DNA of 45,650 bases from a virus, in IMG/VR virus record IMGVR_UViG_3300005096_000116, positions 1 through 45,650 of that record. One strand, given 5' to 3'. A program made the translations under genes and the position numbers. Below the pieces are notes generated by a model. That model was given only the letters and a program-made list of their open reading frames with translations, did no database searches and was not told the DNA's origin. The number at the start of each line of letters is the position of its first letter. Position 1 is the stretch's first letter. Below are positions 558 through 43,136 of the stretch, one piece after another.

Positions 558-592
558 TCGTGGTACAATGTTGTACAGGTTAATTAATAAAG

Positions 593-856: not shown

Positions 857-1049
857 CGACACACCAATGACAGCAACTGAGATACTTCTTCGCAAAGAAG
901 AATGGGATCGTGAACTGCGTGCTCGAAGAAATCGGTACGGCATGATGGTAAATAAAATGATGGGCAAACAGGTACTTAAAATGATGACAAACATGGGTCC
1001 TGTTTTAGGAATCGTTAATTCATATACTATTGTTAACAGGATTAAATAA
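834..1049 (+). CDS. Hypothetical small basic protein (71 aa)
   Basis: ORF track only. It overlaps the previous ORF by 23 nt and has no clear SD. Confidence 0.3.
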   Translation: MNKQQQNNDTPMTATEILLRKEEWDRELRARRNRYGMMVNKMMGKQVLKMMTNMGPVLGIVNSYTIVNRIK

Positions 1050-1052
1050 CAG

Positions 1053-1241
1053 GTGACACTGATGAAAATTATAAACATTGAATTTGAAGACATTTCTTTT
1101 AATAATTCATATACGGATGAACCTACTATACAATCTCATAACGGTGGTGTCATTGTAATGACAAACTCTGATGTTGAATCGTCTTATCAGTTAGTTCCAG
1201 GTAAAACTTACAAAGTAAAAATTACAATTGAGGAACAGTAA
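1053..1241 (+). CDS. Hypothetical protein (likely start ATG 1062)
   Basis: ORF track; CAGGTGACACTG-ATG initiation region like other genes in this genome; abuts the next ORF. Confidence 0.45.
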   Translation: MTLMKIINIEFEDISFNNSYTDEPTIQSHNGGVIVMTNSDVESSYQLVPGKTYKVKITIEEQ

Positions 1242-2028: not shown

Positions 2029-2319
2029 ATGGGTGTTCGTGAATCAAAAATAGAAAAGTACCTCGACAAACAGATCCATGATGCAGGTGGTATTACGAGG
2101 AAGTGGATTTCACCAGGGCGCGATGGTGTGCCTGATCGCATTGTGATTTACAAAGGTCAAGTGTTCTTTGTCGAAGTTAAATCGGTTGATGGTGTGCTGT
2201 CAAAGAATCAGAAGCGTGAGTTGAAAAGATTGTCTGATCACGGTGCTCAAGTTGAAGTTGTGTATGGTAATGCTGACGTTGATTCGTTTGTTGGATTGTT
2301 GAAAGAGTTGTCGGGTTAG
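2029..2319 (+). CDS. VRR-NUC domain nuclease (96 aa)
   Basis: ATG at 2029, inside the longer alt-start track ORF 1843..2319. Motifs GVPDRIV ... FFVEVKS ... LSKNQK fit the PD-(D/E)xK VRR-NUC pattern. It sits directly upstream of an SNF2 helicase, as is typical. Confidence 0.8.
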   Translation: MGVRESKIEKYLDKQIHDAGGITRKWISPGRDGVPDRIVIYKGQVFFVEVKSVDGVLSKNQKRELKRLSDHGAQVEVVYGNADVDSFVGLLKELSG

Positions 2320-3816
2320 ATGACCGACCTACTCACTCCACAGCAACTTCACGACTATCAGAAAGTAGCAATTAATCACATGGCAGTTCACCCGGATAGC
2401 ATGCTGTGGCTCGGGGTCGGGCTTGGGAAAACAATTGTCACACTTACTACTATAGTAGATAAAATGCGTGCGGGTCATGTGCAGAAAACGTTAATACTTG
2501 GTCCACTGCGAGTCATACAGTCAGTGTGGGCGCGTGAAGCAAGAGTGTGGACACACACCAACCATTTACGTTTCAGCATCATTCATGGCACCAAAGAGAA
2601 ACGCTCACGTGCATTGTTCGCAGACGCTGATGTGTATCTTATTAATTATGAGAATTTAAACTGGTTAGCTGAACAACTCGATCATTATTATATCTCCCAG
2701 GGAAAGCCACTGCCGTTTCAGATGGTGGTCTATGACGAGGTGTCGAAACTGAAGAACAGCACCACGCTCCGCATGGCCGGCGGCGACCGGGATCGTAAAG
2801 ATGGGCGTGGTGAGCACTACAAAATTAAAGTTACAGGGTGGCGTAAGATCCTGTCACATTTCAAATATCGAACCGGCCTCACCGGGACACCTGCATCGAA
2901 CGGTTACCTTGATCTGCATGGTCAGTTCCTGGCTGTCGATGGCGGCGAACGACTCGGTGAGTTCATCACGCATTATAAAGATAGTTACTTCACCAGCGAT
3001 TACAGCGGGTGGAACTACACGCCGACTGATTTAGGTAAGCAGTGGATCGAGCATAAGATCAGTGACATCACCGTGAAGATGGACTCACGCGACTATCTCG
3101 ATCTGCCCGACTGTCAGGTGACGAACCTTATGGTTGACCTACCAGCAGCCGCACGCAAAGCCTACAAGGAAGTTGAGAAGAACATGTTCACTCAGCTTGA
3201 CAGCGGCAGTGAGGTTGAAGTGTTCAGCCGGTCGTCGGTGTCAAATAAGACACTCCAATTTTGTAACGGTAGCCCATACCTCAACAGTGAATCACCAGAG
3301 TTTGAAGTACTACACGATGCGAAGTTAAACGCACTTGAAGACGTATTAGAAGAAGCAGGCGGGTCGCCGGTGCTGTGCAGTTACTTATACAAAGCTGATG
3401 CAATACGCATTATGAAGAAATTTAAAAAATATAAACCAGTGAACCTCACTACGACACCATCGAAGGATACAGGTAAAGTCATTGATAAATGGATACACGG
3501 TGATATTAAATTAATGGTGGCTCACCCTGCAAGTTGCGCTCATGGGATTAACGGGTTACAAAAGAGTGGTCACATCGTCGTATGGTTCGGCATCAACTGG
3601 TCACTGGAACTGTACGACCAGATGAACGGTCGCATTGATCGTCAGGGTCAGACTCACCCTGTATCAATCATCAGAATATTATGCAATGATACAATTGACC
3701 TGGCTGTGGCCGATGCGATAGGGCGTAAGACTGATAATCAGGAAGGACTTAAACGCGCATTACAGCGTTACCGTGATGGTGTGACTACGAATGATTTGAC
3801 TGTGAACTTTTTCTGA
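2320..3816 (+). CDS. SNF2-family (SF2) helicase/ATPase
   Basis: Motif I LGVGLGKT, motif II DEVSKLKN, motif III LTGTPASN, motif VI QMNGRIDRQGQ. Confidence 0.9.
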   Translation: MTDLLTPQQLHDYQKVAINHMAVHPDSMLWLGVGLGKTIVTLTTIVDKMRAGHVQKTLILGPLRVIQSVWAREARVWTHTNHLRFSIIHGTKEKRSRALFADADVYLINYENLNWLAEQLDHYYISQGKPLPFQMVVYDEVSKLKNSTTLRMAGGDRDRKDGRGEHYKIKVTGWRKILSHFKYRTGLTGTPASNGYLDLHGQFLAVDGGERLGEFITHYKDSYFTSDYSGWNYTPTDLGKQWIEHKISDITVKMDSRDYLDLPDCQVTNLMVDLPAAARKAYKEVEKNMFTQLDSGSEVEVFSRSSVSNKTLQFCNGSPYLNSESPEFEVLHDAKLNALEDVLEEAGGSPVLCSYLYKADAIRIMKKFKKYKPVNLTTTPSKDTGKVIDKWIHGDIKLMVAHPASCAHGINGLQKSGHIVVWFGINWSLELYDQMNGRIDRQGQTHPVSIIRILCNDTIDLAVADAIGRKTDNQEGLKRALQRYRDGVTTNDLTVNFF

Positions 3817-3818
3817 TT

Positions 3819-4127
3819 ATGAAACTAAGAAGAATTAAATCGCTAAAGGTTAATTGCTACCAATTTAAAATATTGTGGAATAAAACACATGACGGTGGTA
3901 GTTTTAATTACCAGAAGCAAGAAATAGAGATAGGTGTTGAATGTGGGAACGATAATGAAATATTAATGGTTATATGCCATGAATTAATGGAAATATGCGC
4001 TGTTGAGATGAATGTAAGGCTAAGAAAACCGGATTGCAGTGATGATTACATATTTGTATATGACCACAGGCAGCATGAAACTATGATGAATATGTTTTCA
4101 GGTTTATTAAGTCAATTTATTAAATAA
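3819..4127 (+). CDS. Hypothetical protein (102 aa), last gene of the plus-strand arm
   Basis: ORF track; starts 3 nt after the SNF2 stop. It contains HELME, which is not a true HExxH. Confidence 0.55.
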   Translation: MKLRRIKSLKVNCYQFKILWNKTHDGGSFNYQKQEIEIGVECGNDNEILMVICHELMEICAVEMNVRLRKPDCSDDYIFVYDHRQHETMMNMFSGLLSQFIK

Positions 4128-4136
4128 TCAATCCTT

Positions 4137-4472
4137 CTAATGCTGAAATTTACCAACCACAAACATAACAACAGTCACAACACCGGTGCCAATAGCACCC
4201 CACTTCAAGCACCATATCATGAAGTCCTGCACACCACGCCCGACACGTGCAGCACCCTGGAAATCTTTGTGAAGTTGGATCACTGAGCTGGTGTCATCAA
4301 CTAACGACGATACTGACCTGGTTAATTCAGACACAGCAGCGGTGTTGATCTTCTGAGCTTCGATGAGCTTATCAAACTTGGCACCTTCTTCTTCTTCGTG
4401 CTTTTCAAATTTAATAACATGCTGCTCAAATCGTTGACATAAATCATTCATCAGATCTGTTTCTTTGGTCAT
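4137..4472 (-). CDS. C-terminally membrane-anchored protein, lysis-cassette member (spanin-like or holin partner?)
   Basis: Coiled-coil-like N-terminus, one C-terminal hydrophobic segment (WGAIGTGVVTVVMFVVG). Last gene of the late operon, next to holin-like and endolysin genes. Confidence 0.45.
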   Translation of the reverse strand: MTKETDLMNDLCQRFEQHVIKFEKHEEEEGAKFDKLIEAQKINTAAVSELTRSVSSLVDDTSSVIQLHKDFQGAARVGRGVQDFMIWCLKWGAIGTGVVTVVMFVVGKFQH

Positions 4473-4473
4473 G

Positions 4474-4998
4474 CTACACCTTCTCTACTAACTGTTTCGT
4501 TTTCTCTTTACTGCCGGCACTTGAACCAAAGAAGAAATTGTAAACCTGTTCAGCTTTCGATGACACCTGACCCAACACGAAACCGAGTAGTGTACTTTCT
4601 AAAGTGACTTTTCCGGACAGCACCCAAAATACAACACCGAAGAAGCAAGTAACGGTGACTGTTGCCAGTATAGGTACAACGTAACTTTTCGTTTCTTTCT
4701 GAAGTTGACGCGCTGATGCACGATCATCTGCTGCTATCTTCTCAAGATCAACACCAAGTTTAGCCATTTCTGTTTCAAAGGTCTGATCAGCTTCTTTAAG
4801 TTTTAAAAGAGTCCCTGGTGATGCAGTAGCAAGTGCTTTGGCAATGTCAGTTTCTTTAGCATCTTCATTCAGACCCAGTGCCGATGTCAGTGCGTTCATC
4901 GCAACACCACCGACAGGACCACCTAACGCAGTACCAATCAACGGTGCAATAGTTCCGACTAAACTCTTCCAATTAAAATCACTCATCGTGTATCCCAC
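4474..4998 (-). CDS. Holin-like membrane protein (174 aa)
   Basis: Gly-rich hydrophobic N-terminus, two hydrophobic segments near the C-terminus (VVPILATVTVTCFFGVVFWVL, LLGFVLG). Immediately downstream of the endolysin, overlapping its stop. Confidence 0.5.
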   Translation of the reverse strand: MGYTMSDFNWKSLVGTIAPLIGTALGGPVGGVAMNALTSALGLNEDAKETDIAKALATASPGTLLKLKEADQTFETEMAKLGVDLEKIAADDRASARQLQKETKSYVVPILATVTVTCFFGVVFWVLSGKVTLESTLLGFVLGQVSSKAEQVYNFFFGSSAGSKEKTKQLVEKV

Positions 4999-5381
4999 CT
5001 GGCTGGTCCAATAGTTCTAGTATCGAAATGTGTCCGATTAATATATCGACCCATGCCACAACGTCCTGAATATTCTAACTCAAGATAATCAGCAACACGA
5101 TCAGGGTCAATCTGTTCATTTGTGCGCCCTATATACAGTTTAAAATCAGCAGCACGTGCATAAATATGTTGTGAGTTTGGTGCGCCACCAACATCTGCGT
5201 TGTGTTCTTTACACCGGTTTGGTCCTGTGATTTTAATGCGGACAGTGGTGCCGAGTTCTTTAGCAAAATGATCAACGCAACCCTGCAATGCTTCAACAAG
5301 CTCAACATCAACGGTGTCAAATCCGCAACCACACTCACATGCAAATTCTTTTCTGCTTAAATTTTTAGTTAATTTTCCGAT
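4983..5381 (-). CDS. Peptidase M15A-type (zinc D-Ala-D-Ala carboxypeptidase-like) endolysin. Track ORF is 4983..5288; the conserved domain extends upstream to about 5381.
   Basis: Zn motifs SQHIYARAAD (H-x6-D) and THFD; NRCKEHNADVGGAPNSQH. The in-frame upstream extension encodes KNLSRKEFACECGCGFD, typical of the family N-terminus, but holds no ATG/GTG/TTG before TTG 5288. Confidence 0.8.
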   Translation of the reverse strand: MGKLTKNLSRKEFACECGCGFDTVDVELVEALQGCVDHFAKELGTTVRIKITGPNRCKEHNADVGGAPNSQHIYARAADFKLYIGRTNEQIDPDRVADYLELEYSGRCGMGRYINRTHFDTRTIGPARWDTR

Positions 5382-5563
5382 AAGTCACCTGTTTTCTGAG
5401 CATCTTTAATTTTCTGAGCATCTTTAATTTTCTGAGCATCTTTAATTTTCTGAGCATCTTCAGATAATGCTTGCATCACATGATTATATGCAGGAACTTC
5501 GCTGCCTTTAAGTTCAGTACGTGAAAGAAATTCAACACACAATTCAATAGCTTCTTTATCCAT
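5369..5563 (-). CDS. Hypothetical protein with DAQKIK tandem repeat (64 aa)
   Basis: ORF track; abuts the tailspike stop; contains an 18-bp in-frame tandem repeat. Confidence 0.55.
   Translation of the reverse strand: MDKEAIELCVEFLSRTELKGSEVPAYNHVMQALSEDAQKIKDAQKIKDAQKIKDAQKTGDLSEN
5392..5460. repeat. 18-bp tandem repeat, 3 perfect copies plus a 15-nt partial copy (ttttctgagcatctttaa)
   Basis: Read directly; in frame, encoding (DAQKIK)x3 then DAQKT. Confidence 0.95.
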
Positions 5564-7305
5564 CAGTTAAGTACTCTCAATGCTCTATAACCAGTGCCAC
5601 CACTATCAGCAGCACCTACTTCAATTCGTTTTAACGCACCACCGACATAGATCTCTACTGAGTTAGTAGCATCTCCATCAAATTGCATGGCTGTTAAAGT
5701 GTTTATGCTGTCGTAAATATTTAAATCATTAGTAAGATTTTTCTGTATGAGCCAATTGTCTGTACCTTGATCTGAAAAAGTAATAGTTGTGTTTTTAGTA
5801 GCTGTTGATCCACTGTCCAGCTTCAACCCTATATCATAGTCTGCACCGTTAGTAATGATTAAAGTTTGATTCCCACCATTAGACATTTTAACAAAGTTGG
5901 ACAGCGTAGCTATGCCACTGATATCTATAATATTAGTATGATTCCCTGTTACTTTTAAAACAGAATCTGAATTGCTTTCATCAAATATAGCTGCGTTTTG
6001 GAATGCGTTCACGGTGTCTGTAACACCACCGGGGTCTTTGTAAAAGTGAACGCCGTTTGAATAACATCTGGATAAAGAGACACCTTCATTCCACCATTTC
6101 ACACCTGTTGAATCATTCACCCACACGGTCGCGGCAGAGGTAAGACGACCATTACTACCACTATGACCTATGATCTCTATTGCGTTTTTCCTATAAGCTG
6201 GGGTAGATGAACCAGAGAACGGGTCTGTAATTGCATTACCAAATGTTCCTGCGACTTCAAATTCAACAGCCCTGACCATTCCGTCTGTGCCAGTAGCGTC
6301 TTGCAAAGCGCCGATGTTCTGCGCCCATAGATGCTTTCTGCCGTTCAAGTTGTTAATGATAACTTGTTGTGCAACAAAATCATTAGCTGCTGGTGTTGCT
6401 GTGGGGTTGTCGCCAATAAGTATTTGTTGACCAGCAGCTTCGCCCGCTGATGTTGATGAAGGGTCTGATAAAATAAACAAAGGTCCCCTGGTATTTGGAA
6501 GATATTTACCAATGCTAATAGCAGGGATAGCTTTAGTGTTGATTGTCGCACCATTACTATAAAAAGTTACACTGTGAGCGAATGTCAAAGACCCTACGGT
6601 ATAGTTAACACCATTAGATAGACGAAGTTCACGAGAAGCAGTGATGGCTGCTTGAAATTTTACAGTTTCATCACCGGAACCTACTGCACCAAAATCAGCA
6701 ACACTGGGTATGTCTAAATCTTTACTTTCCTGAGTTCTATTAACTCCACCTGTAAAATTATTCCCTGCGGAATATGTGATAATGTCAGCGTTTGTAGGTA
6801 CACCGGATGTCGCTAAATCAATATTTTCTATACCTGATAAATCACTTTTCCAACGGAGATATTTAACAGCATCAGGTGCATCTAAAGTTAAATTCAATGA
6901 ACCACTGTAACTGTCCTCTAACTTCATAGAACGATCAAATGTATCACGCAACTGCTGAATCAGAAATGTAAGATGATCCATCTGTGCTTCATGAATGTCC
7001 GGGAAGAACGCACCCTGCGATGAGAAATCTGTCAACTGATTCTCAGCACGATTCGATCTGATGTACCATTGATAGTTAGTTGGTAGGTTGCCGGCCAGTC
7101 GAACGAGCGTACCGCCGCCATCGACACCGATATTATTGACAGTGTAGTCTGTGTCAACGACGAGCAGCGTCTGTACACCCAGGTCGGTTGTTTCATAAAC
7201 CGATAGTTGAGTTTTATCAACAACAGTGAAGTCATATGAATAAGTATCATTCAGGTTATTGCCGACGTATGGGCCGGACGTGATGTTCAGGGTGCTGACT
7301 GTCAT
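5563..7305 (-). CDS. Tailspike / tail fibre protein (580 aa)
   Basis: Position after the ejection proteins. The N-terminal segment resembles podovirus tailspike head-binding domains. The Gly/Asn/Thr/Ser-rich remainder is consistent with a beta-helix. Confidence 0.65.
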   Translation of the reverse strand: MTVSTLNITSGPYVGNNLNDTYSYDFTVVDKTQLSVYETTDLGVQTLLVVDTDYTVNNIGVDGGGTLVRLAGNLPTNYQWYIRSNRAENQLTDFSSQGAFFPDIHEAQMDHLTFLIQQLRDTFDRSMKLEDSYSGSLNLTLDAPDAVKYLRWKSDLSGIENIDLATSGVPTNADIITYSAGNNFTGGVNRTQESKDLDIPSVADFGAVGSGDETVKFQAAITASRELRLSNGVNYTVGSLTFAHSVTFYSNGATINTKAIPAISIGKYLPNTRGPLFILSDPSSTSAGEAAGQQILIGDNPTATPAANDFVAQQVIINNLNGRKHLWAQNIGALQDATGTDGMVRAVEFEVAGTFGNAITDPFSGSSTPAYRKNAIEIIGHSGSNGRLTSAATVWVNDSTGVKWWNEGVSLSRCYSNGVHFYKDPGGVTDTVNAFQNAAIFDESNSDSVLKVTGNHTNIIDISGIATLSNFVKMSNGGNQTLIITNGADYDIGLKLDSGSTATKNTTITFSDQGTDNWLIQKNLTNDLNIYDSINTLTAMQFDGDATNSVEIYVGGALKRIEVGAADSGGTGYRALRVLN

Positions 7306-7341
7306 AATATAACCTCAATTTTCAATGACCTGAGTGTAACA

Positions 7342-10300
7342 TTACTCACGGTCAGGACCAAATGCTAACTCTTTCAATGTAATTTCTTCACCTTCTTCAA
7401 GGTACTGGTATATTTCGTCGGATGTAGCCCAAGTCTGTGCTGCACCCGGGATATGAAATATAGTAGCTGCAAAAGTGAATATCCCTTTTTGTTGTGCTCT
7501 CGTCACTTCTTCACCTTCGTATAAATTTGAAGCTGCGCCATATATACTCTCAAGCCCGTTACCCACCAAATTAAAAGCTGGTGATGCATTGAATTTATGA
7601 TAATCAGACACAAACACATTCGCAGCGTCCCTTGCGTAAGGTACAGTACCTATGGTGGTGCTTGCCATCTTTGACATTATACGCTTCATATACTCATCTG
7701 GCTCTTCGTCTTCTTCAGGTTCAGCTTCACCTCTTATCAGCAATTCATACATAGTTGTGGCGAAAATCATGTAAAATATACCGGCTGCGAATTGAGATGA
7801 GCTGACCCAACCCTGCTTTTTACCTCTAACCAGCGTCCTTTGAACATTGAACGCTGTGTTAAACCAAGTCATGAATGAGAAAAACAATCTTGCTATCTGA
7901 TTATTAGTACCTAACATCGCACTCATGTTACTAATGTCACCTGAACCCTGTGATTGATCTACGAGCCAATCCGCATATTCAACAGCTTTAGATTCATCAC
8001 CCTCAAAATCAACCATACCTTTCTCAAACCCAGCGTGCCATACAGGAAAATCAACCACATACAGCTGGACATAACCTATTCCCATCATTGATGCACGTCT
8101 GAACGAAGCGATCTTTCCTTCTTTTACTTCTATCTGTTTCATAGCATCATTGAATTCTCGATCAAATGTTTTTAACCGGTGTCGTAATACTGATGATTTA
8201 AGTAGAGCAAAATCACGAGCAGCCCACCCTTCTTGTCCGTTGATAGGGATAGTTTTCAGCATACTCATTATACCTTGTGGTATATAACCTTTACCTTCCA
8301 TCATCAATGTTCTGGCAGTGAATAACCCTGATGGTTGTATTAATATAGTACTCAATTTATAACCTAAATATACATAAGTCATACCGGTACGAAGATGCCT
8401 GGCTAAGTTTGAACCAAACACTTGCGCTTCAGTAGCTCGACCACCTTTAGCTACACTACTCAACCACACATTCATCTTAGCGTACTCTTCTTTACCTAAC
8501 TTCCGTTTAAGTTTCATTGATATTACAGGGTCACGTATAATTTTATTCACTTGTCGAACTGTGTCGTAGTGAGTGATGTAGTGAATAACTTCCTGAAAAT
8601 GATCAGTAATCACACCAAGGTCGAAACGAATTGGCGCGTAGAACTCAGTACGCGTATGAGTTGCACCGGCTGTTACAGACTGATTCAAACTACCGAGTGT
8701 AGAAAACATTGATTCGAGTCGTGCTTCACGTTTGTCTTTAAAATCAGCAGCCCTCGCATCACGATCATGATCATATTGTAAAGTGTAATAACCACCTTTC
8801 ATTTTTCCAAACTTAGTTTGGAACTCAACCGGGTCTACCTTTTTAGGTGTCAGCCCAGTACCTTTAAGTGTTGTCTCAGATAATAAAGGGTACAAAGAGT
8901 CCATTGAATCCCATACTTGTTTTACTATTGACCAATCACTTTCTGTCATGTGATCTAAAACAGCTTGAAGTTTGGGGTTATTAATTGTTATCTCAGCTTC
9001 ATTATCAGGGTTAGCCCACCCTTCCCCAAGTAACATTTTACGAAGGTTACCAGCATTACCAGCATTCAATGCAACAGACAGTATTTGATGCCCATACAAA
9101 TAAGTATTAACAGGCACGTTATCTTCGTCCACTGCAGCTATCTCTGGAATGTATATTTTTTGGTGCATACGTTTCAAATCAGTATTAGGTCGGTTCTTTA
9201 TCGCAGTGATTAAAGGTAACGCTGTACTTTCCCATAAAGTCAATTCTTCATCTCTTGCTACAACAGTTGGTCTGTGAATTAAGGAAGTCATCAACCCAGC
9301 TGGTTCACCTTTATCTAACCAGAATGTCATAAACGGAACCTTTGACATCCATGAAACACCTTCACTTGAAACACGTTCAGTCCACTTTACTTTCCCTGTT
9401 ATCTTTTCAAGTAACGTATAACCCGTTTCATCTTTGCCTGTGGTGCGTTCCGGCCTAAATACGGTATCAAGTTTATCAAGATGATTAATTATTTTAGATT
9501 TTAACTTATCAAATTCGATACTCTCTTTTAGTAGAGTTATCTTATTTGCGTACTTGGCAACATACTCAATGTTCTTCACCGAGTCATTGATGCCCTGTAA
9601 GTCTGTGAACGGAACATTTTTCCAGTGAATCACGTAGGACTCATTCAAAACCTGCTTTGATAGCACCAATTCTTCACCATGTTTTTCAAGACGTTCTTTC
9701 GCCCACAGATTAATGCTGTCAACATCCTTCAGTGTTGCTGACTTTCTGAACTCGAAGCGTTCAAGTATCTTGACGATCTGATCCCAGTAACCACCTTCAG
9801 CTTTCATGATGGCTTCACGAACTTTCTTTTTACTGTAACGTGACATACGGTCGACGATTTTCACAGTGTCATTTTTCGCAGCTGTCGCCGCCATGCCGAG
9901 ATAATAGTTCAACACCTGACGCATCTTCGCAGCAGCAGCACCTTCACGGTTACCTTCAACCAGCATCCGAGCAGATTCCTGTGCAGCGCGGATCTCAGCT
10001 TTGCGGTATTTACCCGGGTGAATCTCACGGAACGACAGTCTGCCGATGCGTTCTTCAGCTAATGCTTTAATGGTTGCACGGTCAATCGTCGGCGCGTTGG
10101 TGCCACGTGCAACCATCTTCAGCTCATGCAGTAGCAACTTACCACGTTCTTCATCCCGCACTGCCTCATCAGCTTCACGCTCAATGGTGCCGTCGGTGAG
10201 AATATCACCATGGCGTTCAACCATTTTCGCTTCAGCGTTGACCTTTGCCTGGTCTTTGATAGCCGGTGCAGTGATCAGGTCAATCAACATCTCAGACCCG

Positions 10301-17558: not shown

Positions 17559-20111
17559 TCAACTACCACCAACATCCACTCTTGGAATAACAGACAATAT
17601 CGCCATAGGCAGCGGTGAGCGTTGTTCAATGCGTACCCCGCCACCCTTGCTCCACTGCGGATCGATGACCACTTCTTGCTTATAAGTCCTCAATGCAATC
17701 TGATCATACCCGTCTGCGTCAAAGCGAGGTTTAATCTCCTGGAATGTGACCTGCTCACCACTGGTTGCATCTTTCCGGCCGCCGACGAACCCACCACGCG
17801 ACCCTTCAACTTCAATGAACACTTTAGACACTGACACTGACTTCGATTTCACCTGTTCCTGTGCAGTGTCGATATCAAGTAACTCAATAGTAGGGGTATA
17901 AGACAACCCTGCGTGTACTTTATTAGCAGCACGATCAAGTGTGACAGATCCGGACGATACAGTCTTACCTTCAACCACGTAACCATCGGCCAGAATGTCA
18001 ACAGTTTCACCTTCGAGATGATCTAAACCTGAAACAGTTGTTATAACTATGAGCGAATTCCCACCTGTTGTGTATGCAGTGAACAATGTACCATCGACAC
18101 CTGATAGTTCAAAAGTGGTAGCAGTGACATTAGCGATAATGTAGACGTTATCATTCAATTCAGTCATACCGACAACATCTTCTATACGAACACTTTCACC
18201 GTTGCTGTAATTATGTGAAGTTATAGTGGTAATAACAACAGGGTTTGATTGAATAGCACCTGTTATTACTGCGGATATACCGTTATAACTCAGACCTGAA
18301 TCAACATAGAAAGCATCTTCAGCGATTTTACTTTCACGTTTCTCAATTCGTTCAACATACCGCACAGTCGAACCGTTAATTGTTCGTTTAACAATGACAT
18401 ACGTCGCATCACGGTTATCTTCACTAATGGTGGCCACTGACTCAAATTCGCCAGCAGCGCCGGTGGTATGATGATGCCAACCCCACACCTGTTGTTCGCG
18501 TTGGTAAGTCAGCCCGAGCATCACACCGTCGTTACGCACGCACCACAGTATTCCATAAGGTTCAGCAGCAAACGCCATCTCAAGAATCGTCTGATCTTCA
18601 AACAGATGCTCAGACATCAGTGATAAATCGTTACCGGTATATTTATCACTACTAAATTCATATCCAAGGTCACGTATCCGGGCACTCTTTTCTTGCAGGT
18701 ACAGCGCCGTACTGTTGACAATTACAGGTTTAACCCATGACGCACCATTGTATGACTGAATGCGTGCACCAATCGTCGATGGTGTAAGCACTTCATCTCG
18801 ACCTTCAGTGACTTTCCACTCACCTCCGGAGGTCAACAGGATCATGGCATCAAGTGAAATGATGTGCCGGATCTCATTCACCTGTTGAGCGGCAATGGTG
18901 AACGTCACAGCGTCGTCGTCGCGCGCCGGGTTTGATGTACGCAATGAGTTAAAATTATTCGTCTGCGTCGTAAAGGTCGCCTGCGGTTCATTATTCGTGT
19001 TAGCGAACACCTGACGTTGCTGATAATAACTGACTACCGCTGGCTTATCATCAACAGCGGTGAACGGTTGTCTATCTTCAGGCGGCGCATCACTGGTGAT
19101 CGGTGCAATATTGTAATCGTCAAACGTGTTGTTGTTTGAGTCACCTATCCAGCCGAAAACCTGTGTATTATTAGAAGGGTCTTTATATATCCGGTAATAG
19201 CTGGCACCTGACACAGCACCCCAGGACAACCTGACACCACCCGTCACTGATAATGAACCTGTAGTGATAGATGACGACGATGATGCTAACGATTCAACTC
19301 CGTCGCTGTCAACAGCAGTGACAACATAAGTGTAAGTTTTGTCATAAGTACCAAAACCTGAACCGACAGTTGTCGCAGCGGTAGTACGTGTTGCAGTACC
19401 ACCAGAAGTATAGGCACTGTGCAACGTTGAATCTTCACCATCGAGTTGAAAACTGTTAGCATCAATCACTGTTATTCTAAATGAACGACCATTGACTTCC
19501 GTCATTCCAACAACAGCAGCGATGTCAACAATGTTACCGGTTGAAAAAGTGTGACCCGTAGCAGTAACAACAGCAGGGTTTGCTTGTGTGATGCCTGTGA
19601 TCGTTTTAACAGTGTCTCCTGCAAAAGTAGGTGCAGTGACTGTCGATGCATAACTGATCACTGTCAGTGTCCAGTTGTCATCGGCCAGCCGATTAAGATT
19701 GCGCGGATCATGACTGGGGTGAGTAATGGTCATCACATCAGCATTTTGCGTATAACTAAGTCGAGATAGTTGAGCTTCAGTATATGGTGTGGTCAATTCA
19801 AAGATGGCAGGACCACTGCCGGCCAGCACATAACCACCTGCTTTAATGACGCGCATTTTCAAGTGTTCAAAGACGAGCATGTAAGTTTGTTCAGTATTGA
19901 AACTGAACGGTATTAATCGACCAACATTAGATGAATTACCCAACTCACCGATGAACTTCAATCCAGGACGTGAATAAACACCACCTTGAGCACGCACAAA
20001 GAAATTCTCACAGAGGTTTAACCCTGTCGAATATTTGATAATGTCAGCGCGTGACTGTAACGACGGTGAAATCTCACCTGATGTAAAACTCCGTTGAATG
20101 ATTTCTGGCAC
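17559..20111 (-). CDS. Tail tubular protein B-like / nozzle protein with two inserted FCCH/SH3-like repeat domains and an Fn3-like domain (850 aa)
   Basis: Size and position after the 217-aa adaptor-like gene. Two paralogous approx 68-aa segments (ITQANPAVVTATGHTF...GMTEVNG...YTSGG and IQSNPVVITTITSHNY...GMTELND...YTTGG). Confidence 0.5.
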   Translation of the reverse strand: MPEIIQRSFTSGEISPSLQSRADIIKYSTGLNLCENFFVRAQGGVYSRPGLKFIGELGNSSNVGRLIPFSFNTEQTYMLVFEHLKMRVIKAGGYVLAGSGPAIFELTTPYTEAQLSRLSYTQNADVMTITHPSHDPRNLNRLADDNWTLTVISYASTVTAPTFAGDTVKTITGITQANPAVVTATGHTFSTGNIVDIAAVVGMTEVNGRSFRITVIDANSFQLDGEDSTLHSAYTSGGTATRTTAATTVGSGFGTYDKTYTYVVTAVDSDGVESLASSSSSITTGSLSVTGGVRLSWGAVSGASYYRIYKDPSNNTQVFGWIGDSNNNTFDDYNIAPITSDAPPEDRQPFTAVDDKPAVVSYYQQRQVFANTNNEPQATFTTQTNNFNSLRTSNPARDDDAVTFTIAAQQVNEIRHIISLDAMILLTSGGEWKVTEGRDEVLTPSTIGARIQSYNGASWVKPVIVNSTALYLQEKSARIRDLGYEFSSDKYTGNDLSLMSEHLFEDQTILEMAFAAEPYGILWCVRNDGVMLGLTYQREQQVWGWHHHTTGAAGEFESVATISEDNRDATYVIVKRTINGSTVRYVERIEKRESKIAEDAFYVDSGLSYNGISAVITGAIQSNPVVITTITSHNYSNGESVRIEDVVGMTELNDNVYIIANVTATTFELSGVDGTLFTAYTTGGNSLIVITTVSGLDHLEGETVDILADGYVVEGKTVSSGSVTLDRAANKVHAGLSYTPTIELLDIDTAQEQVKSKSVSVSKVFIEVEGSRGGFVGGRKDATSGEQVTFQEIKPRFDADGYDQIALRTYKQEVVIDPQWSKGGGVRIEQRSPLPMAILSVIPRVDVGGS

Positions 20112-20767: not shown

Positions 20768-20783
20768 AATCTGTTACCTGTTT

Positions 20784-21056
20784 TCATTTATTCATTGCCG
20801 CTTCGCCACCCTTCACGACAGTTTCGCTTGCTGCGTAAATACCGACATTCCACTTCGTAAAATCAGCCCATGCAGCAAATACAGCAATCATAGCCACTGA
20901 ATCAGCAGAGTTAAATGTGGCATATAAAGCCCACGCAATAACAATAGCCTCAAGCCATACCATCATCCATAACCGCGTACCCTTACTCGGAATCTTCTTG
21001 TAAATTTCTTCGACCATCGTTTCATCCTCAACCATTGATTTGCTATTAGCGCCCAC
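20784..21056 (-). CDS. Small membrane protein, 2 predicted TM segments (90 aa)
   Basis: Hydrophobic stretches LWMMVWLEAIVIAWALYATF and VAMIAVFAAWADF. Confidence 0.5.
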   Translation of the reverse strand: MGANSKSMVEDETMVEEIYKKIPSKGTRLWMMVWLEAIVIAWALYATFNSADSVAMIAVFAAWADFTKWNVGIYAASETVVKGGEAAMNK

Positions 21057-21063
21057 AGTGCTG

Positions 21064-21486
21064 TTACGGCAACGGTGTAGCCGTCTGTCCAGTTATTGCC
21101 GGAGTCGTCGGCATTACCGTTGGTGGCTTTGGGGGCATCACTATTGGCAGAACCTCATGCACCCATTCATCAGTTGTATAAGTAGACACTCTTCCTTGTT
21201 TGTCAGTTGCTGTAGCAGTTGCATAAAGCGTTTTACCAGCGAATAGATTGTTATCAACTACCCACTGACAGGCTGTGGTATTTACCGGGCCGAGCTCATA
21301 AGCACCTGTTGCGAATCCGTAATACCAGTTAATGGTATCGCCTTCGACTGTCCAATCAATCGGATCGCCGTTCTCACGTTCGGTTGGATATGCGCAGTTA
21401 AGATTGCTCAGAGGTTCTTTCAATGGATCAACTGGTGCAGCGATCACGTTAAAAGAGAGAAGTAAAAGCAAGAGTAGTTTTTTCAT
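21064..21486 (-). CDS. Secreted protein with N-terminal signal peptide, Fn3-like core and Pro-rich tail (140 aa)
   Basis: MKKLLLLLLLSFNVIAAP signal-peptide-like N-terminus; YATATATDKQGRVS pattern; C-terminal PPKPPTVMPTTP. Confidence 0.65.
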   Translation of the reverse strand: MKKLLLLLLLSFNVIAAPVDPLKEPLSNLNCAYPTERENGDPIDWTVEGDTINWYYGFATGAYELGPVNTTACQWVVDNNLFAGKTLYATATATDKQGRVSTYTTDEWVHEVLPIVMPPKPPTVMPTTPAITGQTATPLP

Positions 21487-21494
21487 ATTAATAC

Positions 21495-23000
21495 CTATTT
21501 AAAAAGTTTCGACCATTTAATGCCAGGCACTTCCCCGCCATTACTTGAAGTGGCGGCATGTAAACAATCAAGCGAAACCTGCAAGCCCCCGCGTTTGCTC
21601 TCAATAAGACAGGCAAAAGCCCCCTCACCAACAACACATTTGTATTCAAGTCCTCTGCCGGTTGCACCCTGCTGTAAACCATTTATCTGTCCGTGCAATC
21701 CAGGGTTCCAGCCAACATTGCCCGATAACACGCAATAAATTGGTGCAGAGTTCTTATTCTTACCTGTGTCAACAAACACGCCACCCCCATGCGTATCACC
21801 CATTACAAAGATGGTGCGGTAAGGATTTCCATTTGAGCGAATATAATCAAATATCTCGTCTCGCTCATAGGTATACCCTTTCCAGCCATACCAGTTTGCA
21901 GTGTCTTGATCCCATCCATGATTACCATCAAGCATGTTTCCGCTTATAACAACTAGATACTTCTGTGTATTAGAATCAACAGTTGCTTTCAACCATGCCT
22001 TTTGCGCTGCGCCAAGTTTAGATTTGCTTGGCGAATCAGCGTTAAAGCGATAATCACCATCAGTTGTTGTATCCTTCACGATAACTCTACATGGCGGCAC
22101 ATCGACATAATAATAATGGTGATCGCTAACGTAAGGAGTCCACGGTGTATCTTGCTCTACAAGTGCTTTGTTTAGCGACATATAAAGCTCTTGCCCGGTA
22201 TCTCTGCCCGTTACCCACCGAGTTGCTTCATCGCCTACTGCAATCGCGCGACCACTACAGTCATTAAATGCTCTGCCGTGATCTCCCCACATATAATATG
22301 ACGGTACGCCGACCTTAAACTCAGCCATTGTATTGCCTTGCGCGTATGTACGACTACCGCCCCCAGTTGACGCTAAATATCCAAGATTATTCAATCCAGA
22401 ATATGTATTAATAAAGTTTGTCCGGTATTTATCGGCGGTTGCATCAACGTGTGCTGGCGGGTTAAAAAACTCACCTGCTGCATAAGCTGTTGGCACGGCT
22501 GGAAAGTTGCTTTGAATGTCGGAGTAATAAATATCATCATTATGGATAGCGAAATCCAAGTTATGATTAAGAAGTCTTGAGAAAACAGCGGAGTACTGAG
22601 CAGCGCCGTCATTTGTCTTTAACGGATGCCAAGGAGCACAGCCTATAACTGCAGCTTTCCAGTTAGATACCTCATTCGATAATGTTTTAATACTTCCTGC
22701 TGTAAATGTGGACTCTGTGCCGTATGTTGGCGCATCAACACCGTTGTCATGCTTTGTTCGCCAGTAAAATTTACGCCCCGATTTTAATCCAGTAACATAA
22801 GAAGTATCTCTATAATGGTGCAATGCGGCTACTGCAATAACGGTCGCAATAAACCCTTGTGTTACGCGCTTATATTCAGGATCATCAAATACCTCTAGCG
22901 TGAAATCACATGCCTGATCTGCGCGACATTGCACAGCAAAACCATCAGACGTTAACCCTCCTGCCCATGCGCCTTCCCGTGGCAATGTTACAGCAGCCAC
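21495..23000 (-). CDS. PhoD-like metallophosphoesterase (alkaline phosphatase D / phosphodiesterase family; 501 aa)
   Basis: N-terminal beta-sandwich pattern (YVTGLKSGRKFYWR). Metallophosphatase-like motifs IHNDDIYYSD, MWGDHGRAFND, LVVISGNMLDGNHGW, FVMGDTHGG, and LGAAQKAWL as in PhoD. Confidence 0.65.
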   Translation of the reverse strand: MAAVTLPREGAWAGGLTSDGFAVQCRADQACDFTLEVFDDPEYKRVTQGFIATVIAVAALHHYRDTSYVTGLKSGRKFYWRTKHDNGVDAPTYGTESTFTAGSIKTLSNEVSNWKAAVIGCAPWHPLKTNDGAAQYSAVFSRLLNHNLDFAIHNDDIYYSDIQSNFPAVPTAYAAGEFFNPPAHVDATADKYRTNFINTYSGLNNLGYLASTGGGSRTYAQGNTMAEFKVGVPSYYMWGDHGRAFNDCSGRAIAVGDEATRWVTGRDTGQELYMSLNKALVEQDTPWTPYVSDHHYYYVDVPPCRVIVKDTTTDGDYRFNADSPSKSKLGAAQKAWLKATVDSNTQKYLVVISGNMLDGNHGWDQDTANWYGWKGYTYERDEIFDYIRSNGNPYRTIFVMGDTHGGGVFVDTGKNKNSAPIYCVLSGNVGWNPGLHGQINGLQQGATGRGLEYKCVVGEGAFACLIESKRGGLQVSLDCLHAATSSNGGEVPGIKWSKLFK

Positions 23001-23001
23001 T

Positions 23002-24117
23002 TTATACCTCCGTTAACCAAAGAGTTCCAATAACTCCGGGTTTCGTGTAGGCATTAATATATGCATCAGTAGAAGTAGTTTTAATAGTTTCTGGATTACC
23101 AGAAATATTTGGTGAAGACGTGTTAGTTGTTGCGGGTTCGCCTCCAGACTGCACAACAATAGCGGGGCTACCTGTCAGGACATCTAGCGTTAGATCAGGC
23201 GTTGTTCCGTAGCCAACAACGGGTTCAGGTTTTGTTGGGTCTGTCCACGTTGCTGAATCTTGGAATGAATACCAGATAACAGGGTCAGTTGACGTAGGAG
23301 TATCTCTGTATAAATCAGCAGGAGAGGTGACAATTCCGCGTGCATTTCTATTTACAACTTGTGCCAGTGTAAGAGCAGATTTGTAAATCTTAAAATCATA
23401 CATTGTGCCGTCAAAGTTAGGCGCGCTTCCGATAGACTCGCCGATGTGCATGTACATACCTGTCGTATTAAATGTAACGGCAGCAGCAGTCATGCCAATA
23501 GATGTGCGCTTATCGGCCTGAGAGCCATCAATAAACACAGTAACCGAATCATCTGCACGGTCGATTGTAAATACAGGATGGTGTAAATTTGTGTCAGATG
23601 ATACGGTTGTTACGCCATTTGTTATTGAAAATACAATAGTCCCGGTTGCATCATTGAGATATACCTGATATTTCCATACCCCGCCACTTGGATAGAATAC
23701 AAGATCAAGCCTAGATACAGCACCGCCGCCCATAGACATATATCTGTCATTATTTGTTGTCGCAACTAATCCGTCTTTTTCAGCCCAAAACTCAAACGTA
23801 GCGGCATCTGTTGCAGATGCCAGTAACCCAGCAACCTCCGTATTCGCTGACCAATCCTGTGTGCCGTTATTATACCCGTCAGTATTGAGCGTCATCTGTG
23901 CGCCGAAGATACTGCTAACTGCCGACGCCCTCAAAAACACATCAACATTAGATATGGCGCGGTAGCTCTTGCCTGGCGTAATCGCTGTAAAAGTATGCGC
24001 GCCACCTGTTAACGTTAAAGGTATTGCTGCGCCTCGTTTTTGACCGATAACTTCTGCAACTGTATTTAATGCTTTATCGCCTTTTGAATCTTTTCTTGTG
24101 ACAGGTGCACCACTCAT
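23002..24117 (-). CDS. LamG / concanavalin-A-like lectin domain protein (371 aa)
   Basis: FDGTMYDFKIYKSALTLAQV and the preceding beta-rich region match the Laminin_G_3-type signature. Start overlaps the upstream ORF (ATGA). Confidence 0.55.
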   Translation of the reverse strand: MSGAPVTRKDSKGDKALNTVAEVIGQKRGAAIPLTLTGGAHTFTAITPGKSYRAISNVDVFLRASAVSSIFGAQMTLNTDGYNNGTQDWSANTEVAGLLASATDAATFEFWAEKDGLVATTNNDRYMSMGGGAVSRLDLVFYPSGGVWKYQVYLNDATGTIVFSITNGVTTVSSDTNLHHPVFTIDRADDSVTVFIDGSQADKRTSIGMTAAAVTFNTTGMYMHIGESIGSAPNFDGTMYDFKIYKSALTLAQVVNRNARGIVTSPADLYRDTPTSTDPVIWYSFQDSATWTDPTKPEPVVGYGTTPDLTLDVLTGSPAIVVQSGGEPATTNTSSPNISGNPETIKTTSTDAYINAYTKPGVIGTLWLTEV

Positions 24118-24431
24118 GATTCTTCCCCATACATTTGTTTAATACGATCATCGTCTTCACGTTCAATTTTCAATGAAGTTAACTGGAATCGAATCGATTT
24201 GTTAGAATCATTTTTACTACTGGATTCAGACTTATTATCGACAAACGCATACCCGCGTATTTCGACTACATCGCCGACACTCATACCTGAAGCCCCCAGT
24301 TCATCAATCATGTCATCTTCAACACTGATACTGGTGCCATACGGATAATAACTATCATCAGAACAGTATGTCATCCCCATCGATGATGAAGACTCCTTTT
24401 TAATTTTGACTTGACTATCTTCTTCCATCAT
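24114..24431 (-). CDS. Hypothetical acidic protein (105 aa)
   Basis: ORF track; tight coupling to neighbours. Confidence 0.55.
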   Translation of the reverse strand: MMEEDSQVKIKKESSSSMGMTYCSDDSYYPYGTSISVEDDMIDELGASGMSVGDVVEIRGYAFVDNKSESSSKNDSNKSIRFQLTSLKIEREDDDRIKQMYGEES

Positions 24432-24752: not shown

Positions 24753-24778
24753 GTTAAGAAAAGACCCCCGAAGGGGTC
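24753..24778 (-). terminator. Rho-independent terminator/attenuator after the capsid-decoration genes
   Basis: Minus strand reads gacccc-ttcg-ggggtc followed by ttttctt, 8 nt downstream of the 24786 stop. Confidence 0.75.
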
Positions 24779-31081: not shown

Positions 31082-31561
31082 CTACAAAAATGAAACAACT
31101 TCTTTATTATCATCAGCTTGTTTCTCTTTACGACGTTTTCGACCACGCAGCAGTCGATCCATCACCTCTTTATCAGAGTTAACTTCAACCTTCTCAGCGG
31201 CGAACGCATCAACGAACACGTGTTTGGCCACCAGGTTGAGTGCAGTATTGCTGGCCGGCAGGTTGCCGCGCTGCCTGGCAATTAGATGATTATCCACTGC
31301 TTCCATCAACAGCCACTCTGCATCAATGTCACTGGTCTCTAACCTGGCCGCCAGCACGCGCTCAATCGCCGCAGAGATGTGTTTTTTGTTCCTGATACCG
31401 TGACCACTGTCAGGTGACCACCCTGAAGCTTCAGCAGCACGACGTGCACTGAAGTCTTTGCAATACTCGACAACGAAGTTTGCATCTCTGGGATTTAACC
31501 CGGTCAGATCTTTTAATGTGATGCGTGGTGGCATTGTTTTAACCTGGTTGTTTAATATCAT
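31082..31561 (-). CDS. Terminase small subunit (159 aa)
   Basis: FVVEYCKDFSARRAAEASGWSPDSGHGIRNKKHISAAIE matches the Terminase_2-type HTH N-terminus; basic C-terminus; upstream of terL. Confidence 0.8.
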   Translation of the reverse strand: MILNNQVKTMPPRITLKDLTGLNPRDANFVVEYCKDFSARRAAEASGWSPDSGHGIRNKKHISAAIERVLAARLETSDIDAEWLLMEAVDNHLIARQRGNLPASNTALNLVAKHVFVDAFAAEKVEVNSDKEVMDRLLRGRKRRKEKQADDNKEVVSFL

Positions 31562-31787
31562 CGATCAGTAGTTCAACGATGTTCAGTGCTTTTTCTTCAG
31601 TTATATCTTTGAATATTGATTCTGCTTTATCCCATCCAGTGTCATTATCTTTAAACGCATAAGCTATTGAACATACACTAAGTGTTTCAGGCTCAAAGTA
31701 AAACCTTACTTCTGGTCTTGATTCATCATCATTGTCAAATTTTACTAACACCTGACCAACATCAGTTTCATATAATTTTGCGAACAT
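31539..31787 (-). CDS. Hypothetical protein, first gene of the late operon (82 aa)
   Basis: ORF track; GGTGA SD 6 nt upstream of the ATG. Confidence 0.6.
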   Translation of the reverse strand: MFAKLYETDVGQVLVKFDNDDESRPEVRFYFEPETLSVCSIAYAFKDNDTGWDKAESIFKDITEEKALNIVELLIDDIKQPG

Positions 31788-32607
31788 AACATATCACCGT
31801 TGAAATCAATTAGTTATGCCGAGTGTATCACCGGTTGATAATAAACTGCAAATAAGGTGATATTCAGCACTGTTTCGCTGGAACGCTCAGAATGTTTTAG
31901 GGTCGGTCGTTTTACTGTATTAACCGACACAGTTAAATCAGTTTAAAAACATGGAACGACACAATGAAAAAAATCATAATGTGTTATAAATCACATGCTT
32001 ACTCTAAGAATCAATAACCTACCACATACGAGTTGACCACAGGTTGAGCACTCAATCCTGAGAATTGAAGAGTCTCTCATTTCACAGGTTGGGGTATTCG
32101 TTTTCACTAGTATGTCCTAAGTCATTGATTCTTATTTCACCGTCTATATGAATCAGTTACTTAGGGCATACCACTACCCATAAAGAGATACTTACGATCC
32201 TATATAAATCAATGACTTACCACATATATCTCTTTAGTATAGGTTACTTGTTCAAAGTAGGTATGTCTCATATAACTTATTGATATATAAAGAGAAAATA
32301 GAAAAAGTTAAACGACTTTCGGTCGTTTGTCCTAAGCTGTTGATTGTTAGCATAAGTCATTGATATACAAGAAGAATAAATCCGACACATAGTTTATTGG
32401 GTCGTTTGTCCTAAGTCATTGATTTTTTAGTAATATCCGACACAATGAAAATCAGTAAATTATCGTCTTGAAATGATGCAAATCGAGTCATTTTAATATT
32501 GTTAATTAAATCACATACTTACTTTAAAAATCAATAGTTTACGACACCATATGTGTCGTTTGTCATTCGGTCATATAATATTCGACACAATGAAACGTTG
32601 ATTTTAC
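31788..32607. promoter_or_regulatory. 820-bp non-coding divergent hub with at least four repeat families (candidate origin / operator array / early-late switch)
   Basis: No ORF above 20 codons. CGACAC repeats (31925, 31957, 32383, 32438, 32542, 32583; inverted at 32553). TGTCCTAAGTCATTGATT family (32113, 32328, 32351, 32407; inverted at 32150-32170 and 32205-32220). 25-nt direct repeat 32321-32345 / 32400-32424. 29-nt repeat 31988-32016 / 32508-32536. Confidence 0.8.
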
Positions 32608-32973
32608 ATGTATATTCCTTATAATTCGTCACGTAACTTTAATAAACGAGGACACACAGTGAATAAAGACAACCGACTAAATCGTGGTAAAAAAGAACGT
32701 ATCACTCAAAAAGAACTTCAAAGTCGTATGTTTTACAATCCAGTAAAAGGTACTTTCATGCGAATAAAGAATGTCAGCAACAGCCACAAAGCTGGTGAAA
32801 TCATCGGAACTAATCATCACCAGGGGCACTTAAACGTCATGATTAACAGTGAAATTTATAAACTACATCATCTCGCATGGCTATACATGACCGGCGAGTG
32901 GCCAACGAAAGCCATTAGGCACATCAACGGCGACAAAACCGACAACCGTTTCTTTAATCTGAAATATACTTGA
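32608..32973 (+). CDS. HNH endonuclease (HNH_3-type). An alternative start at GTG 32659 has a GAGGA SD.
   Basis: YKLHHLAWLYMTGEWP...IRHINGDKTDNRFFNL matches the His-Me finger pattern H..aW...G....vdHiNGd..DNR..NL. Confidence 0.75.
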   Translation: MYIPYNSSRNFNKRGHTVNKDNRLNRGKKERITQKELQSRMFYNPVKGTFMRIKNVSNSHKAGEIIGTNHHQGHLNVMINSEIYKLHHLAWLYMTGEWPTKAIRHINGDKTDNRFFNLKYT

Positions 32974-32996
32974 CAACTGTTCCACTTTGTTATACT
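32970..32996 (+). promoter_or_regulatory. Sigma70-like promoter (TTGACA, 15-nt spacer, extended -10 TGtTATACT)
   Basis: ttgacaactgttccactttgttatact read directly. It shares TTGAC..TGTTCCACT with the minus-strand promoter at 39695-39722. Confidence 0.55.
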
Positions 32997-33034
32997 TTTA
33001 ATATGTAAATTAAATAATAGCAAAGGTGAATAAA

Positions 33035-43062: not shown

Positions 43063-43136
43063 TGCCCGTTAGTGTAGTGGTAACACACCGAACTTTGACT
43101 TCGGTATCATAGGTTCAAATCCTGTACGGGCTACCA
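43063..43136 (+). tRNA. tRNA-Gln (anticodon UUG), CCA encoded
   Basis: Hand-folded cloverleaf: U8 A9, D stem gtgt/acac with a GG loop, anticodon stem ccgaa/ttcgg, loop c-t-TTG-a-c, T arm atagg-TTCAAAT-cctgt, acceptor gcccgt/acgggc, discriminator A, then CCA. Position 1:72 is U.U. Confidence 0.8.

Follow-up and report, generated by a model that had tools for sequence, protein, structure and literature searches.

A predicted LamG-linked, signal-less variant of the PhoD phosphoesterase family in a mobile cassette of phage late operons

What might a phage gain from a lectin-like protein and a phosphoesterase encoded among the genes that build its virion? The question is raised by the 45,650-nucleotide (nt) stretch of the IMG/VR record IMGVR_UViG_3300005096_000116, here called the window, to which positions refer unless another sequence is named, and which looks like an apparently whole podovirus genome with T7-like gene order. 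An original prediction, made from the letters alone, had placed three translationally coupled genes between the head and tail tubular genes, encoding a LamG (concanavalin-like) protein, a PhoD-like metallophosphoesterase and a small protein with a signal peptide, and had offered two explanations, a phosphodiesterase directed at host surface polymers or a phosphate-scavenging module. The three open reading frames (ORFs), all on the minus strand, and their setting proved real. Comparison of their sequences indicates a new type of PhoD-family protein, which lacks an export signal, is coupled to a LamG partner and is carried by a mobile cassette within the late operons of phages. Our preferred reading, held tentatively and with slightly less than even confidence, is that the pair would form a phosphodiesterase of two subunits, directed at glycans, that attacks the surface polymers of the host and is either borne by the virion or released at lysis.

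The first line of evidence is the strict linkage of the two genes. In all 12 distinct loci of the PhoD-like family (the window, L003, L004-6, L007, L008, L009, L012, L013, L014/15, L019 (= L100), L099 and L101), a LamG-family ORF abuts or overlaps the PhoD-like gene directly upstream, and these LamG homologues are full-length and 22-54% identical to that of the window. The locus scans used subgroup alignments, the 31-member family alignment being too diverse for pattern design. By comparison, a LamG neighbour is absent from all 78 of the cellular PhoD relatives retrieved. The two domains are also found fused: a Gordonia sp. contig from a metagenome-assembled genome (MAG), L029, encodes a single protein of at least 647 amino acids (aa) with Laminin_G_3 (residues 70-208) followed by PhoD (333-581), this being a distant relative akin to a group of ~650-760-aa phage PhoD-like proteins and not a true family member. 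Hence strict linkage and fusion together make it almost certain that the LamG and PhoD-like proteins work together, and the suggestion that their pairing was meaningful is borne out.

The second line of evidence is that the pair has moved. At phage loci it is always co-oriented within late or structural blocks (in the window, L003, L012, L013 and L014/15), at differing places: between the head genes and tail tubular protein A in the window, between terminase and portal in L012, between a P22-type portal and a tailspike-like gene in L014/15, after the ejection proteins in L013, and two genes ahead of an M15 endolysin in L003. Such differing positions in the late blocks of different phage types point to a mobile module. 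Separately, an M15-type peptidase adjoins the pair in L003, where it matches the endolysin family phrog_894, and in L012, where it is recognised by sequence motif only, with no family match; a 211-aa protein with a weak polysaccharide-lyase-like match directly follows the PhoD-like gene in L003.

In the window the pair belongs to a larger inserted block. Upstream lie the GP7-type major capsid, Bbp16-like, 96-aa and Gp10-like genes, and downstream those for tail tubular proteins A and B, as the placement between head and tail genes had implied. The coupling first proposed is equally clear: the LamG start shares the letters ATGA with the Gp10-like stop, the GTG of the PhoD-like gene, which has a GGAGG ribosome-binding site, lies 1 nt past the LamG stop, and spacers of 7-8 nt follow the PhoD-like gene, that ahead of the 140-aa gene being 8 nt. 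The count of three genes was, however, one short, as the block includes a fourth, for a 90-aa membrane protein. The nearest sequenced phages, the Vibrio phages 1.021.A/B/C and 1.185.O of the Nahant collection, share ~73-76% nucleotide identity with the window in the capsid and tubular B genes. In 1.021.A, the homologues of the Gp10-like gene (60% identity) and tubular A (66%) are ~31 nt apart, against 3,346 nt in the window. The position directly ahead of tubular A that the Gp10-like gene holds in the window is filled in 1.185.O by an HNH nuclease gene; hence the slot is a variable spot in which sister phages carry different mobile genes, and the phage can seemingly do without the Gp10-like protein.

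Codon usage marks the block as foreign. The LamG and PhoD-like genes correlate with the late genes at r = 0.36, whereas length-matched chunks of the late genes do so at r = 0.88 +/- 0.02 (minimum 0.81), and even the early genes reach r = 0.81; the codons avoided by the cassette are CGT, GGT, CTG and TTC. GC content does not distinguish the cassette within the window, so the compositional check proposed at the outset came out positive for codon usage alone. This deviant usage indicates recent acquisition from another genomic background. The sequence comparisons thus support a foreign accessory cassette, not a set of core virion genes, as had been claimed. Promoter- and terminator-like sites within the block are no more numerous than expected by chance. 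A strong terminator-like hairpin, GACCCCTTCGGGGGTC with a T run, stands after the Bbp16-like gene and before the 96-aa gene, and resembles the attenuator that T7-like phages have past their capsid genes; expression of the cassette and tail genes would then depend on read-through of this hairpin.

The identity of the PhoD-like protein is based on profile and fold comparisons. Pfam PhoD matches with E 2.1e-14 and 54 bits, against a cut-off of 27, while the PhoD_N profile stays below threshold (14 bits against 30), and the motifs quoted in the original prediction are all present in the translation (as IHNDDIYYSD, WGDHG, DGNHGW, GDTHGG and LGAAQKAWL). An AlphaFold2 model built from six family sequences, of moderate quality (predicted local distance difference test (pLDDT) 61, predicted template modelling score (pTM) 0.73), has as its top Foldseek match Bacillus subtilis PhoD (2YEQ; E 8.4e-19, template modelling (TM) scores 0.63/0.60), followed by purple acid phosphatases; the model has the PhoD layout of an N-terminal beta-sandwich and a metallophosphatase domain. 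A sequence search of the PDB with the single protein gave no match, but the profile of 31 family members matched 2YEQ with E 3e-22. The breadth of the family likewise depended on the method. A word-based homologue search with the protein and a six-member alignment recovered five relatives before ordinary PhoDs appeared at ~45 bits, and a scan of IMG/VR with the six-member alignment found nothing; an exhaustive profile search recovered ~35 full-length representatives (E < 1e-30), followed by a sharp drop to partial matches with ordinary PhoDs.

Whether such a protein could be an enzyme depends on its metal site, several positions of which had been said to deviate from canonical PhoD, so that the activity might be novel or lost. 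Profile alignment equates window residues with those of 2YEQ as follows: C121 = C180, D156 = D207, Y159 = Y210, D240 = D266, H241 = H267, N246 = N272, D402 = D436 and H404 = H438. Across 31 members with 22-59% identity to the window protein, D156, Y159, D240, H241, D402 and H404 never vary, and conservation reaches at least 90% for C121, D358 and H361. Hence the predicted Fe3+ ligand set (C121, D156, Y159 and H404, with D402 bridging) is retained. The deviation concerns two calcium ligands: D265 of B. subtilis PhoD is replaced by G239 and N271 by F245, while D266 and N272 have their counterparts. At position 239, 24 of the 31 members have Asp, and the subclade formed by the window and six others has Gly; at position 245, the family consensus and most members have an aromatic residue. 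In the wider PhoD family all four calcium ligands (D265, D266, N271 and N272) are near-invariant, and D265A or N271A each abolish hydrolysis of p-nitrophenyl phosphate by the B. subtilis enzyme (PMC4223295).

A family-specific, near-invariant motif, DGxHG(W), occupies residues 358-362 (DGNHG in the window). Its histidine has no counterpart in 2YEQ, and the spacing of H361 recalls the divalent-metal histidine of purple acid phosphatases. The motif may make good the loss of the calcium ligands with a ligand like that of purple acid phosphatases, and from this pattern of conservation we infer a remodelled, still functional metal centre. Of the two outcomes first envisaged, loss of activity is thus unlikely, with seven metal-site residues invariant or nearly so across the family, while an altered metal centre is likely. 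The same conservation bears on the explanation that the pair is a catalytically dead ornament of capsid or tail, its lectin and phosphatase folds serving binding only. The position of the block directly after the capsid decoration genes, its translational coupling to the Gp10-like gene, the loss of two PhoD calcium ligands, and the occurrence of LamG domains in large virion structural proteins (phrog_8510) are all consistent with this. Yet the metal-site residues are kept at such divergence, DGxHG is newly conserved, and the closest phages build virions without the pair, which also occurs in a bacterial exopolysaccharide (EPS) locus. We consider this explanation highly improbable.

The third line of evidence concerns where the proteins could act. 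All 31 family members begin directly at MxxPxLxREGARxGG with no Tat or Sec leader, as had been noted for the window protein, whereas many cellular relatives carry Tat (RRxFLK-type) or Sec/lipoprotein leaders; neither the LamG nor the PhoD-like protein of the window has a hydrophobic leader. The absence of export signals fits an exit from the cell with virions or by lysis. Late synthesis, the lack of export signals and domain types that normally work outside the cell argue together for extracellular action. Nor is the gene a recently captured host gene, as identity to cellular relatives does not exceed 29%, and 185,579 species genomes contain only one close member, on a 2.8-kb MAG contig.

These observations leave little room for the second of the original explanations, namely a phosphate-scavenging auxiliary metabolic gene whose product frees phosphate from organic phosphorus for the infected cell. 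Phages do carry phosphate-related genes, such as phoA, pstS and phoH, to which such a gene could be likened, and membership of the PhoD family, a marine phage lineage, and cyanophage genes annotated as 'alkaline phosphatase D' would all suit this role. However, the scarcity and divergence of cellular relatives speak against it, and without a Tat or Sec signal the protein could not reach periplasmic or external organic phosphorus before lysis. Moreover, late expression leaves little time to use the phosphate, the gene is strictly coupled to a lectin-like partner, and two of the calcium ligands are altered. Scavenging is hence the least probable of the explanations considered here, whereas a phosphodiesterase for surface polymers, the other alternative, fits better, both with an EPS locus that holds the pair and with phage PhoD-like genes that lie beside tail fibres.

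The LamG protein comprises a variable N-terminus of ~35 aa, a core at ~100-255 and a conserved C-terminal region ending in YTKPGxxG; among homologues the N-terminal 35-50 residues are not conserved. Laminin_G_3 matches residues 101-254 with E 1.4e-11 and 45 bits, against a cut-off of 27.6, and is above cut-off in the homologues of L007, L008, L019 and L101, that of L099 falling just under it at 24.1 bits. A match to phrog_8510 covers the LamG part only. A homologue search with the protein returned only itself, tblastn against phages gave no match, and the family profile has weak PDB matches to the carbohydrate-binding module of an arabinanase and to a pentraxin. On these sequence matches the protein is a lectin-like, putative carbohydrate binder.

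A glycan substrate is also suggested by one bacterial context. In the metagenome contig Ga0316205_10003608 (L099), the pair lies within a bacterial PEP-CTERM/exosortase EPS locus, among genes for EpsH-DUF3485, an initiating GT4 transferase, an AT3-SGNH acyltransferase, PEP-CTERM proteins and a PrsT-like TPR protein; AT-rich intergenic regions of ~0.4-0.5 kb flank the pair on both sides, and there is no break in GC or composition at the pair. The same context can be read as support for a cytoplasmic role, in which the pair, made late, would hydrolyse sugar-phosphate or pyrophosphate intermediates (nucleotide sugars or undecaprenyl-phosphate-linked glycans), thereby stopping host capsule or O-antigen synthesis, or would degrade the nucleotide signals of defence systems. 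Both proteins lack an export signal, LamG could recognise the sugar part of such intermediates, the signal-less pair of L099 lies beside an initiating transferase in a biosynthesis locus, and loss of calcium ligands would suit the low calcium of the cytoplasm. Against this, anti-defence and takeover genes are usually early, whereas the block is in a late operon and has promoter-like sites only at the chance level. PADLOC matched none of the four cassette proteins, and the idea of a defence system was dropped on that ground. In addition, the PhoD and purple acid phosphatase relatives treated in the study of the PhoD structure are extracytoplasmic or secreted (PMC4223295), other phage PhoD-like genes lie beside tail fibres, and the LamG protein of L019 seemingly has a signal peptide. 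A cytoplasmic role is therefore unlikely, in our judgement.

Extracellular action need not imply a glycan substrate. A general phosphodiesterase or nuclease, released by lysis, might instead cut extracellular DNA or other non-glycan phosphodiesters of a biofilm matrix, with LamG as a mere tether. PhoD enzymes are phosphodiesterases with broad activity in vitro (PMC4223295), and late expression without signals would serve this function equally well. No data point to nucleic acid, however, and glycans are indicated instead by the obligate pairing with a lectin-type protein, by the fusion of LamG to PhoD and by the EPS locus, making a matrix nuclease very unlikely.

Several known systems resemble the pair in part. 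B. subtilis PhoD (2YEQ; PF09423) is the best PDB match by both structure and profile, sharing the fold, the Cys/Asp/Tyr/His iron ligands and the bridging Asp, and is itself thought to act on a phosphodiester polymer of the cell surface, teichoic acid (PMC4223295). The window protein, in contrast, is only ~15% identical, lacks a Tat signal and the C-terminal cap helix, has D265 and N271 replaced and DGxHG added, and is always encoded next to LamG. Purple acid phosphatases are the second-best structural matches and share the logic of a tyrosinate-iron site as well as the histidine spacing of H361; their first iron ligand is Asp where the window protein has Cys, their last motif is GHxH where it has the GDxH of PhoD, and the sequence profiles match PhoD and not these enzymes. 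Other phages encode PhoD-fold proteins with no assigned function (phrog_13624, phrog_24476 and phrog_25497, including Microbacterium phage Alleb gp39 and Anabaena phage Elbi gp95), often in structural regions, as in the window: the Alleb gene is between capsid and connector genes, and that of L017/18 follows the central fibre J and two fibre genes. Unlike the window protein, these are single polypeptides of ~650-760 aa with an N-terminal domain of their own. The window protein matches phrog_13624 weakly (5.5e-9 over residues 290-405) and belongs to a separate clade, with ~35 representatives, in which the LamG partner is a separate gene; a fold search of BFVD returned only ~650-aa phage proteins and PhoD-like proteins of giant viruses. 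The closest documented precedent for the proposed logic is the GDPD glycerophosphodiesterase domain in the tail modules of Gram-positive phages, thought to cut wall teichoic acid (PMC10194240). These domains have an unrelated TIM-barrel fold (PF03009), are part of tail proteins and occur with Gram-positive hosts; Pfam GDPD has no match in the window. Our literature search found no paper linking PhoD with virions.

The preferred glycan-directed phosphodiesterase can accordingly be set out in steps. A podovirus of T7 layout has acquired the foreign four-gene block in a variable slot between the head-decoration genes and tail tubular protein A. The LamG and PhoD-like proteins would form one functional unit, presumably a complex, in which LamG binds a glycan and the PhoD-like subunit hydrolyses phosphodiester or phosphomonoester bonds within it or attached to it; host capsule, EPS or lipopolysaccharide (LPS) are candidates for the substrate. 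Made late together with the virion proteins, the pair would act outside the cytoplasm, attached to the particle or released by lysis, and the surface polymer around the host would be cleared or modified, aiding the access or escape of progeny. That the pair is actually bound to the virion seems doubtful to us.

A number of observations weigh against this reading. Firstly, as D265 and N271 are not conserved, the tri-metal (Fe-Ca-Ca) site of PhoD is not intact here, and the activity could be altered or weak; pLDDT below 50 in the loops that carry several ligands precluded inspection of the geometry of the site. Secondly, no virion-attachment domain is detectable in LamG, as the PHROG and Pfam matches cover only its core, and a single-sequence AlphaFold2 model of this protein (pLDDT 29.5) was discarded. 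Thirdly, the varying position within late operons is that of a moron-like gene and not of a fixed virion part. Fourthly, the EPS-locus context is a single case and could be coincidental. Fifthly, the LamG protein of L019, whose ORF opens at the first base of the contig, begins with the Sec-type leader MKRLLFFPLLLIAVSAWAGPP, the LamG-family region covering residues 55-400; a LamG apparently with a signal peptide beside a PhoD-like partner without one is awkward for an obligate cytoplasmic complex. Lastly, surface polymers with phosphodiester links are assumed for this Vibrio host.

The two small proteins of the block have no Pfam, PHROG, PADLOC or phage tblastn match. The 140-aa protein has, as originally described, a hydrophobic Sec-type leader (MKKLLLLLLLSFNVIAAP, hydrophobic at residues 1-22) and a Pro/Thr-rich tail, with a domain of FN3-like sequence pattern between them. 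It had been presented as the third member of the cassette, but only some members of the window's subclade have a homologue after the pair. The ORF right after the PhoD-like gene of L007 is similar to it (score 69 against 26 +/- 5 for shuffled sequences, 0 of 1,000 reaching it; for the mature parts only, 2 of 1,000), and that of L008 starts with the same kind of leader, whereas no ORF of this type follows the pair in L003, L004, L012, L014 or L099. Hence the 140-aa protein is an optional accessory. The leader of the L019 LamG protein, with the following 'PLSN', also resembles the start of the 140-aa protein (9 of 1,000 shuffles reach the score). In the 90-aa protein a single transmembrane segment (29-47) is clear, and another hydrophobic stretch is weaker; its listed GTG start has no ribosome-binding site, and the true start may be an internal ATG. 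It was not seen with the pair elsewhere and is best regarded as a passenger of the block. A role of these two genes as a lysis cassette was set aside, since the lysis genes are elsewhere in the window and 1.021.A manages without both.

The remainder of the window is that of a marine phage lineage. Its T7-like genes encode the terminase subunits, a T7-type portal, the capsid and tubular proteins A and B, together with gp13-, gp14- and gp16-like internal proteins, a fibre with a gp17-type N-terminus and an M15 endolysin, and it also encodes an SNF2 helicase, DUF2800, an Enc34-type single-stranded-DNA-binding protein and one tRNA-Gln. The conserved scaffold of tail tubular protein B is interrupted, as in the Nahant relatives, by two E1_FCCH-type domains (Pfam E 2e-23) and by an FN3-like segment. 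The switch from minus-strand late genes to plus-strand genes coincides with a stretch in which GC falls to ~0.34, probably a divergent regulatory region. An 872-aa DUF5906 (primase/helicase-like) gene has higher GC (~0.50) and, as the second outlier in codon usage, correlates with the late genes at r = 0.46; it may be another acquired segment. The coordinates of these features are given in Table 1.

Table 1. Positions of the cassette, of other features of the window and of features at related loci
Sequence	Feature	Coordinates	Strand	Remark
Window	Four-gene inserted block, 3,346 nt	20768..24113	(-)	Between Gp10-like stop and tail tubular protein A start
Window	LamG / concanavalin-like protein, 371 aa	23002..24117	(-)	
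Window	PhoD-like metallophosphoesterase, 501 aa	21495..23000	(-)	GTG start
Window	DGxHG(W) motif of PhoD-like protein	22414-22428	(-)	
Window	Small secreted protein, 140 aa	21064..21486	(-)	
Window	Small membrane protein, 90 aa as listed	20784..21056	(-)	
Window	Gp10-like head gene	24114-24431		
Window	Terminator-like hairpin	24763-24778	(-)	
Window	Tail tubular protein B	17559-20111	(-)	
Window	Fibre with gp17-type N-terminus	5563-7305		Gene separate from LamG
Window	M15 endolysin and neighbouring membrane proteins	4137-5288		Phage lysis genes
Window	Low-GC stretch	31500-33000		
Window	DUF5906 gene, 872 aa	36789-39407	(-)	
Window	tRNA-Gln, anticodon TTG	43063-43136	(+)	Among early genes
L002 (1.185.O)	HNH nuclease	6563-7159		
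L003	M15-type peptidase	2282-3330		
L012	M15-type peptidase	4802-5137		
L019/L100	LamG-family ORF	1-1209		
L029	LamG-PhoD fusion protein	2219-4159		
L099	LamG and PhoD-like pair	5443-8195		

Known phage depolymerases are glycosidases, lyases and esterases, and to our knowledge the only phage phosphodiesterases proposed so far are the GDPD domains in phages of Gram-positive bacteria. Set against these, a bolder proposal, in which we place rather low confidence, is that the pair may be the first phosphodiesterase-type phage 'depolymerase' for Gram-negative hosts: a lectin-enzyme complex of two subunits with a metal centre intermediate between those of PhoD and purple acid phosphatases, carried by the virion or released at lysis, which would cleave phosphodiester-linked capsule, EPS or LPS and spread between unrelated phages, and possibly into bacterial EPS loci, as a self-contained module for host range or escape. 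The strict linkage of the two genes makes this hypothesis directly testable. If it is true, an enzyme class would be added to the toolkit of phages against the surface polysaccharides of marine Gram-negative hosts, phosphate-bridged glycans would gain a new reagent, and a PhoD subfamily would be defined whose altered site could show how the metal centres of PhoD and purple acid phosphatases interconvert. Should the pair prove cytoplasmic, this would point instead to host glycan synthesis being shut off late in infection, likewise something new.

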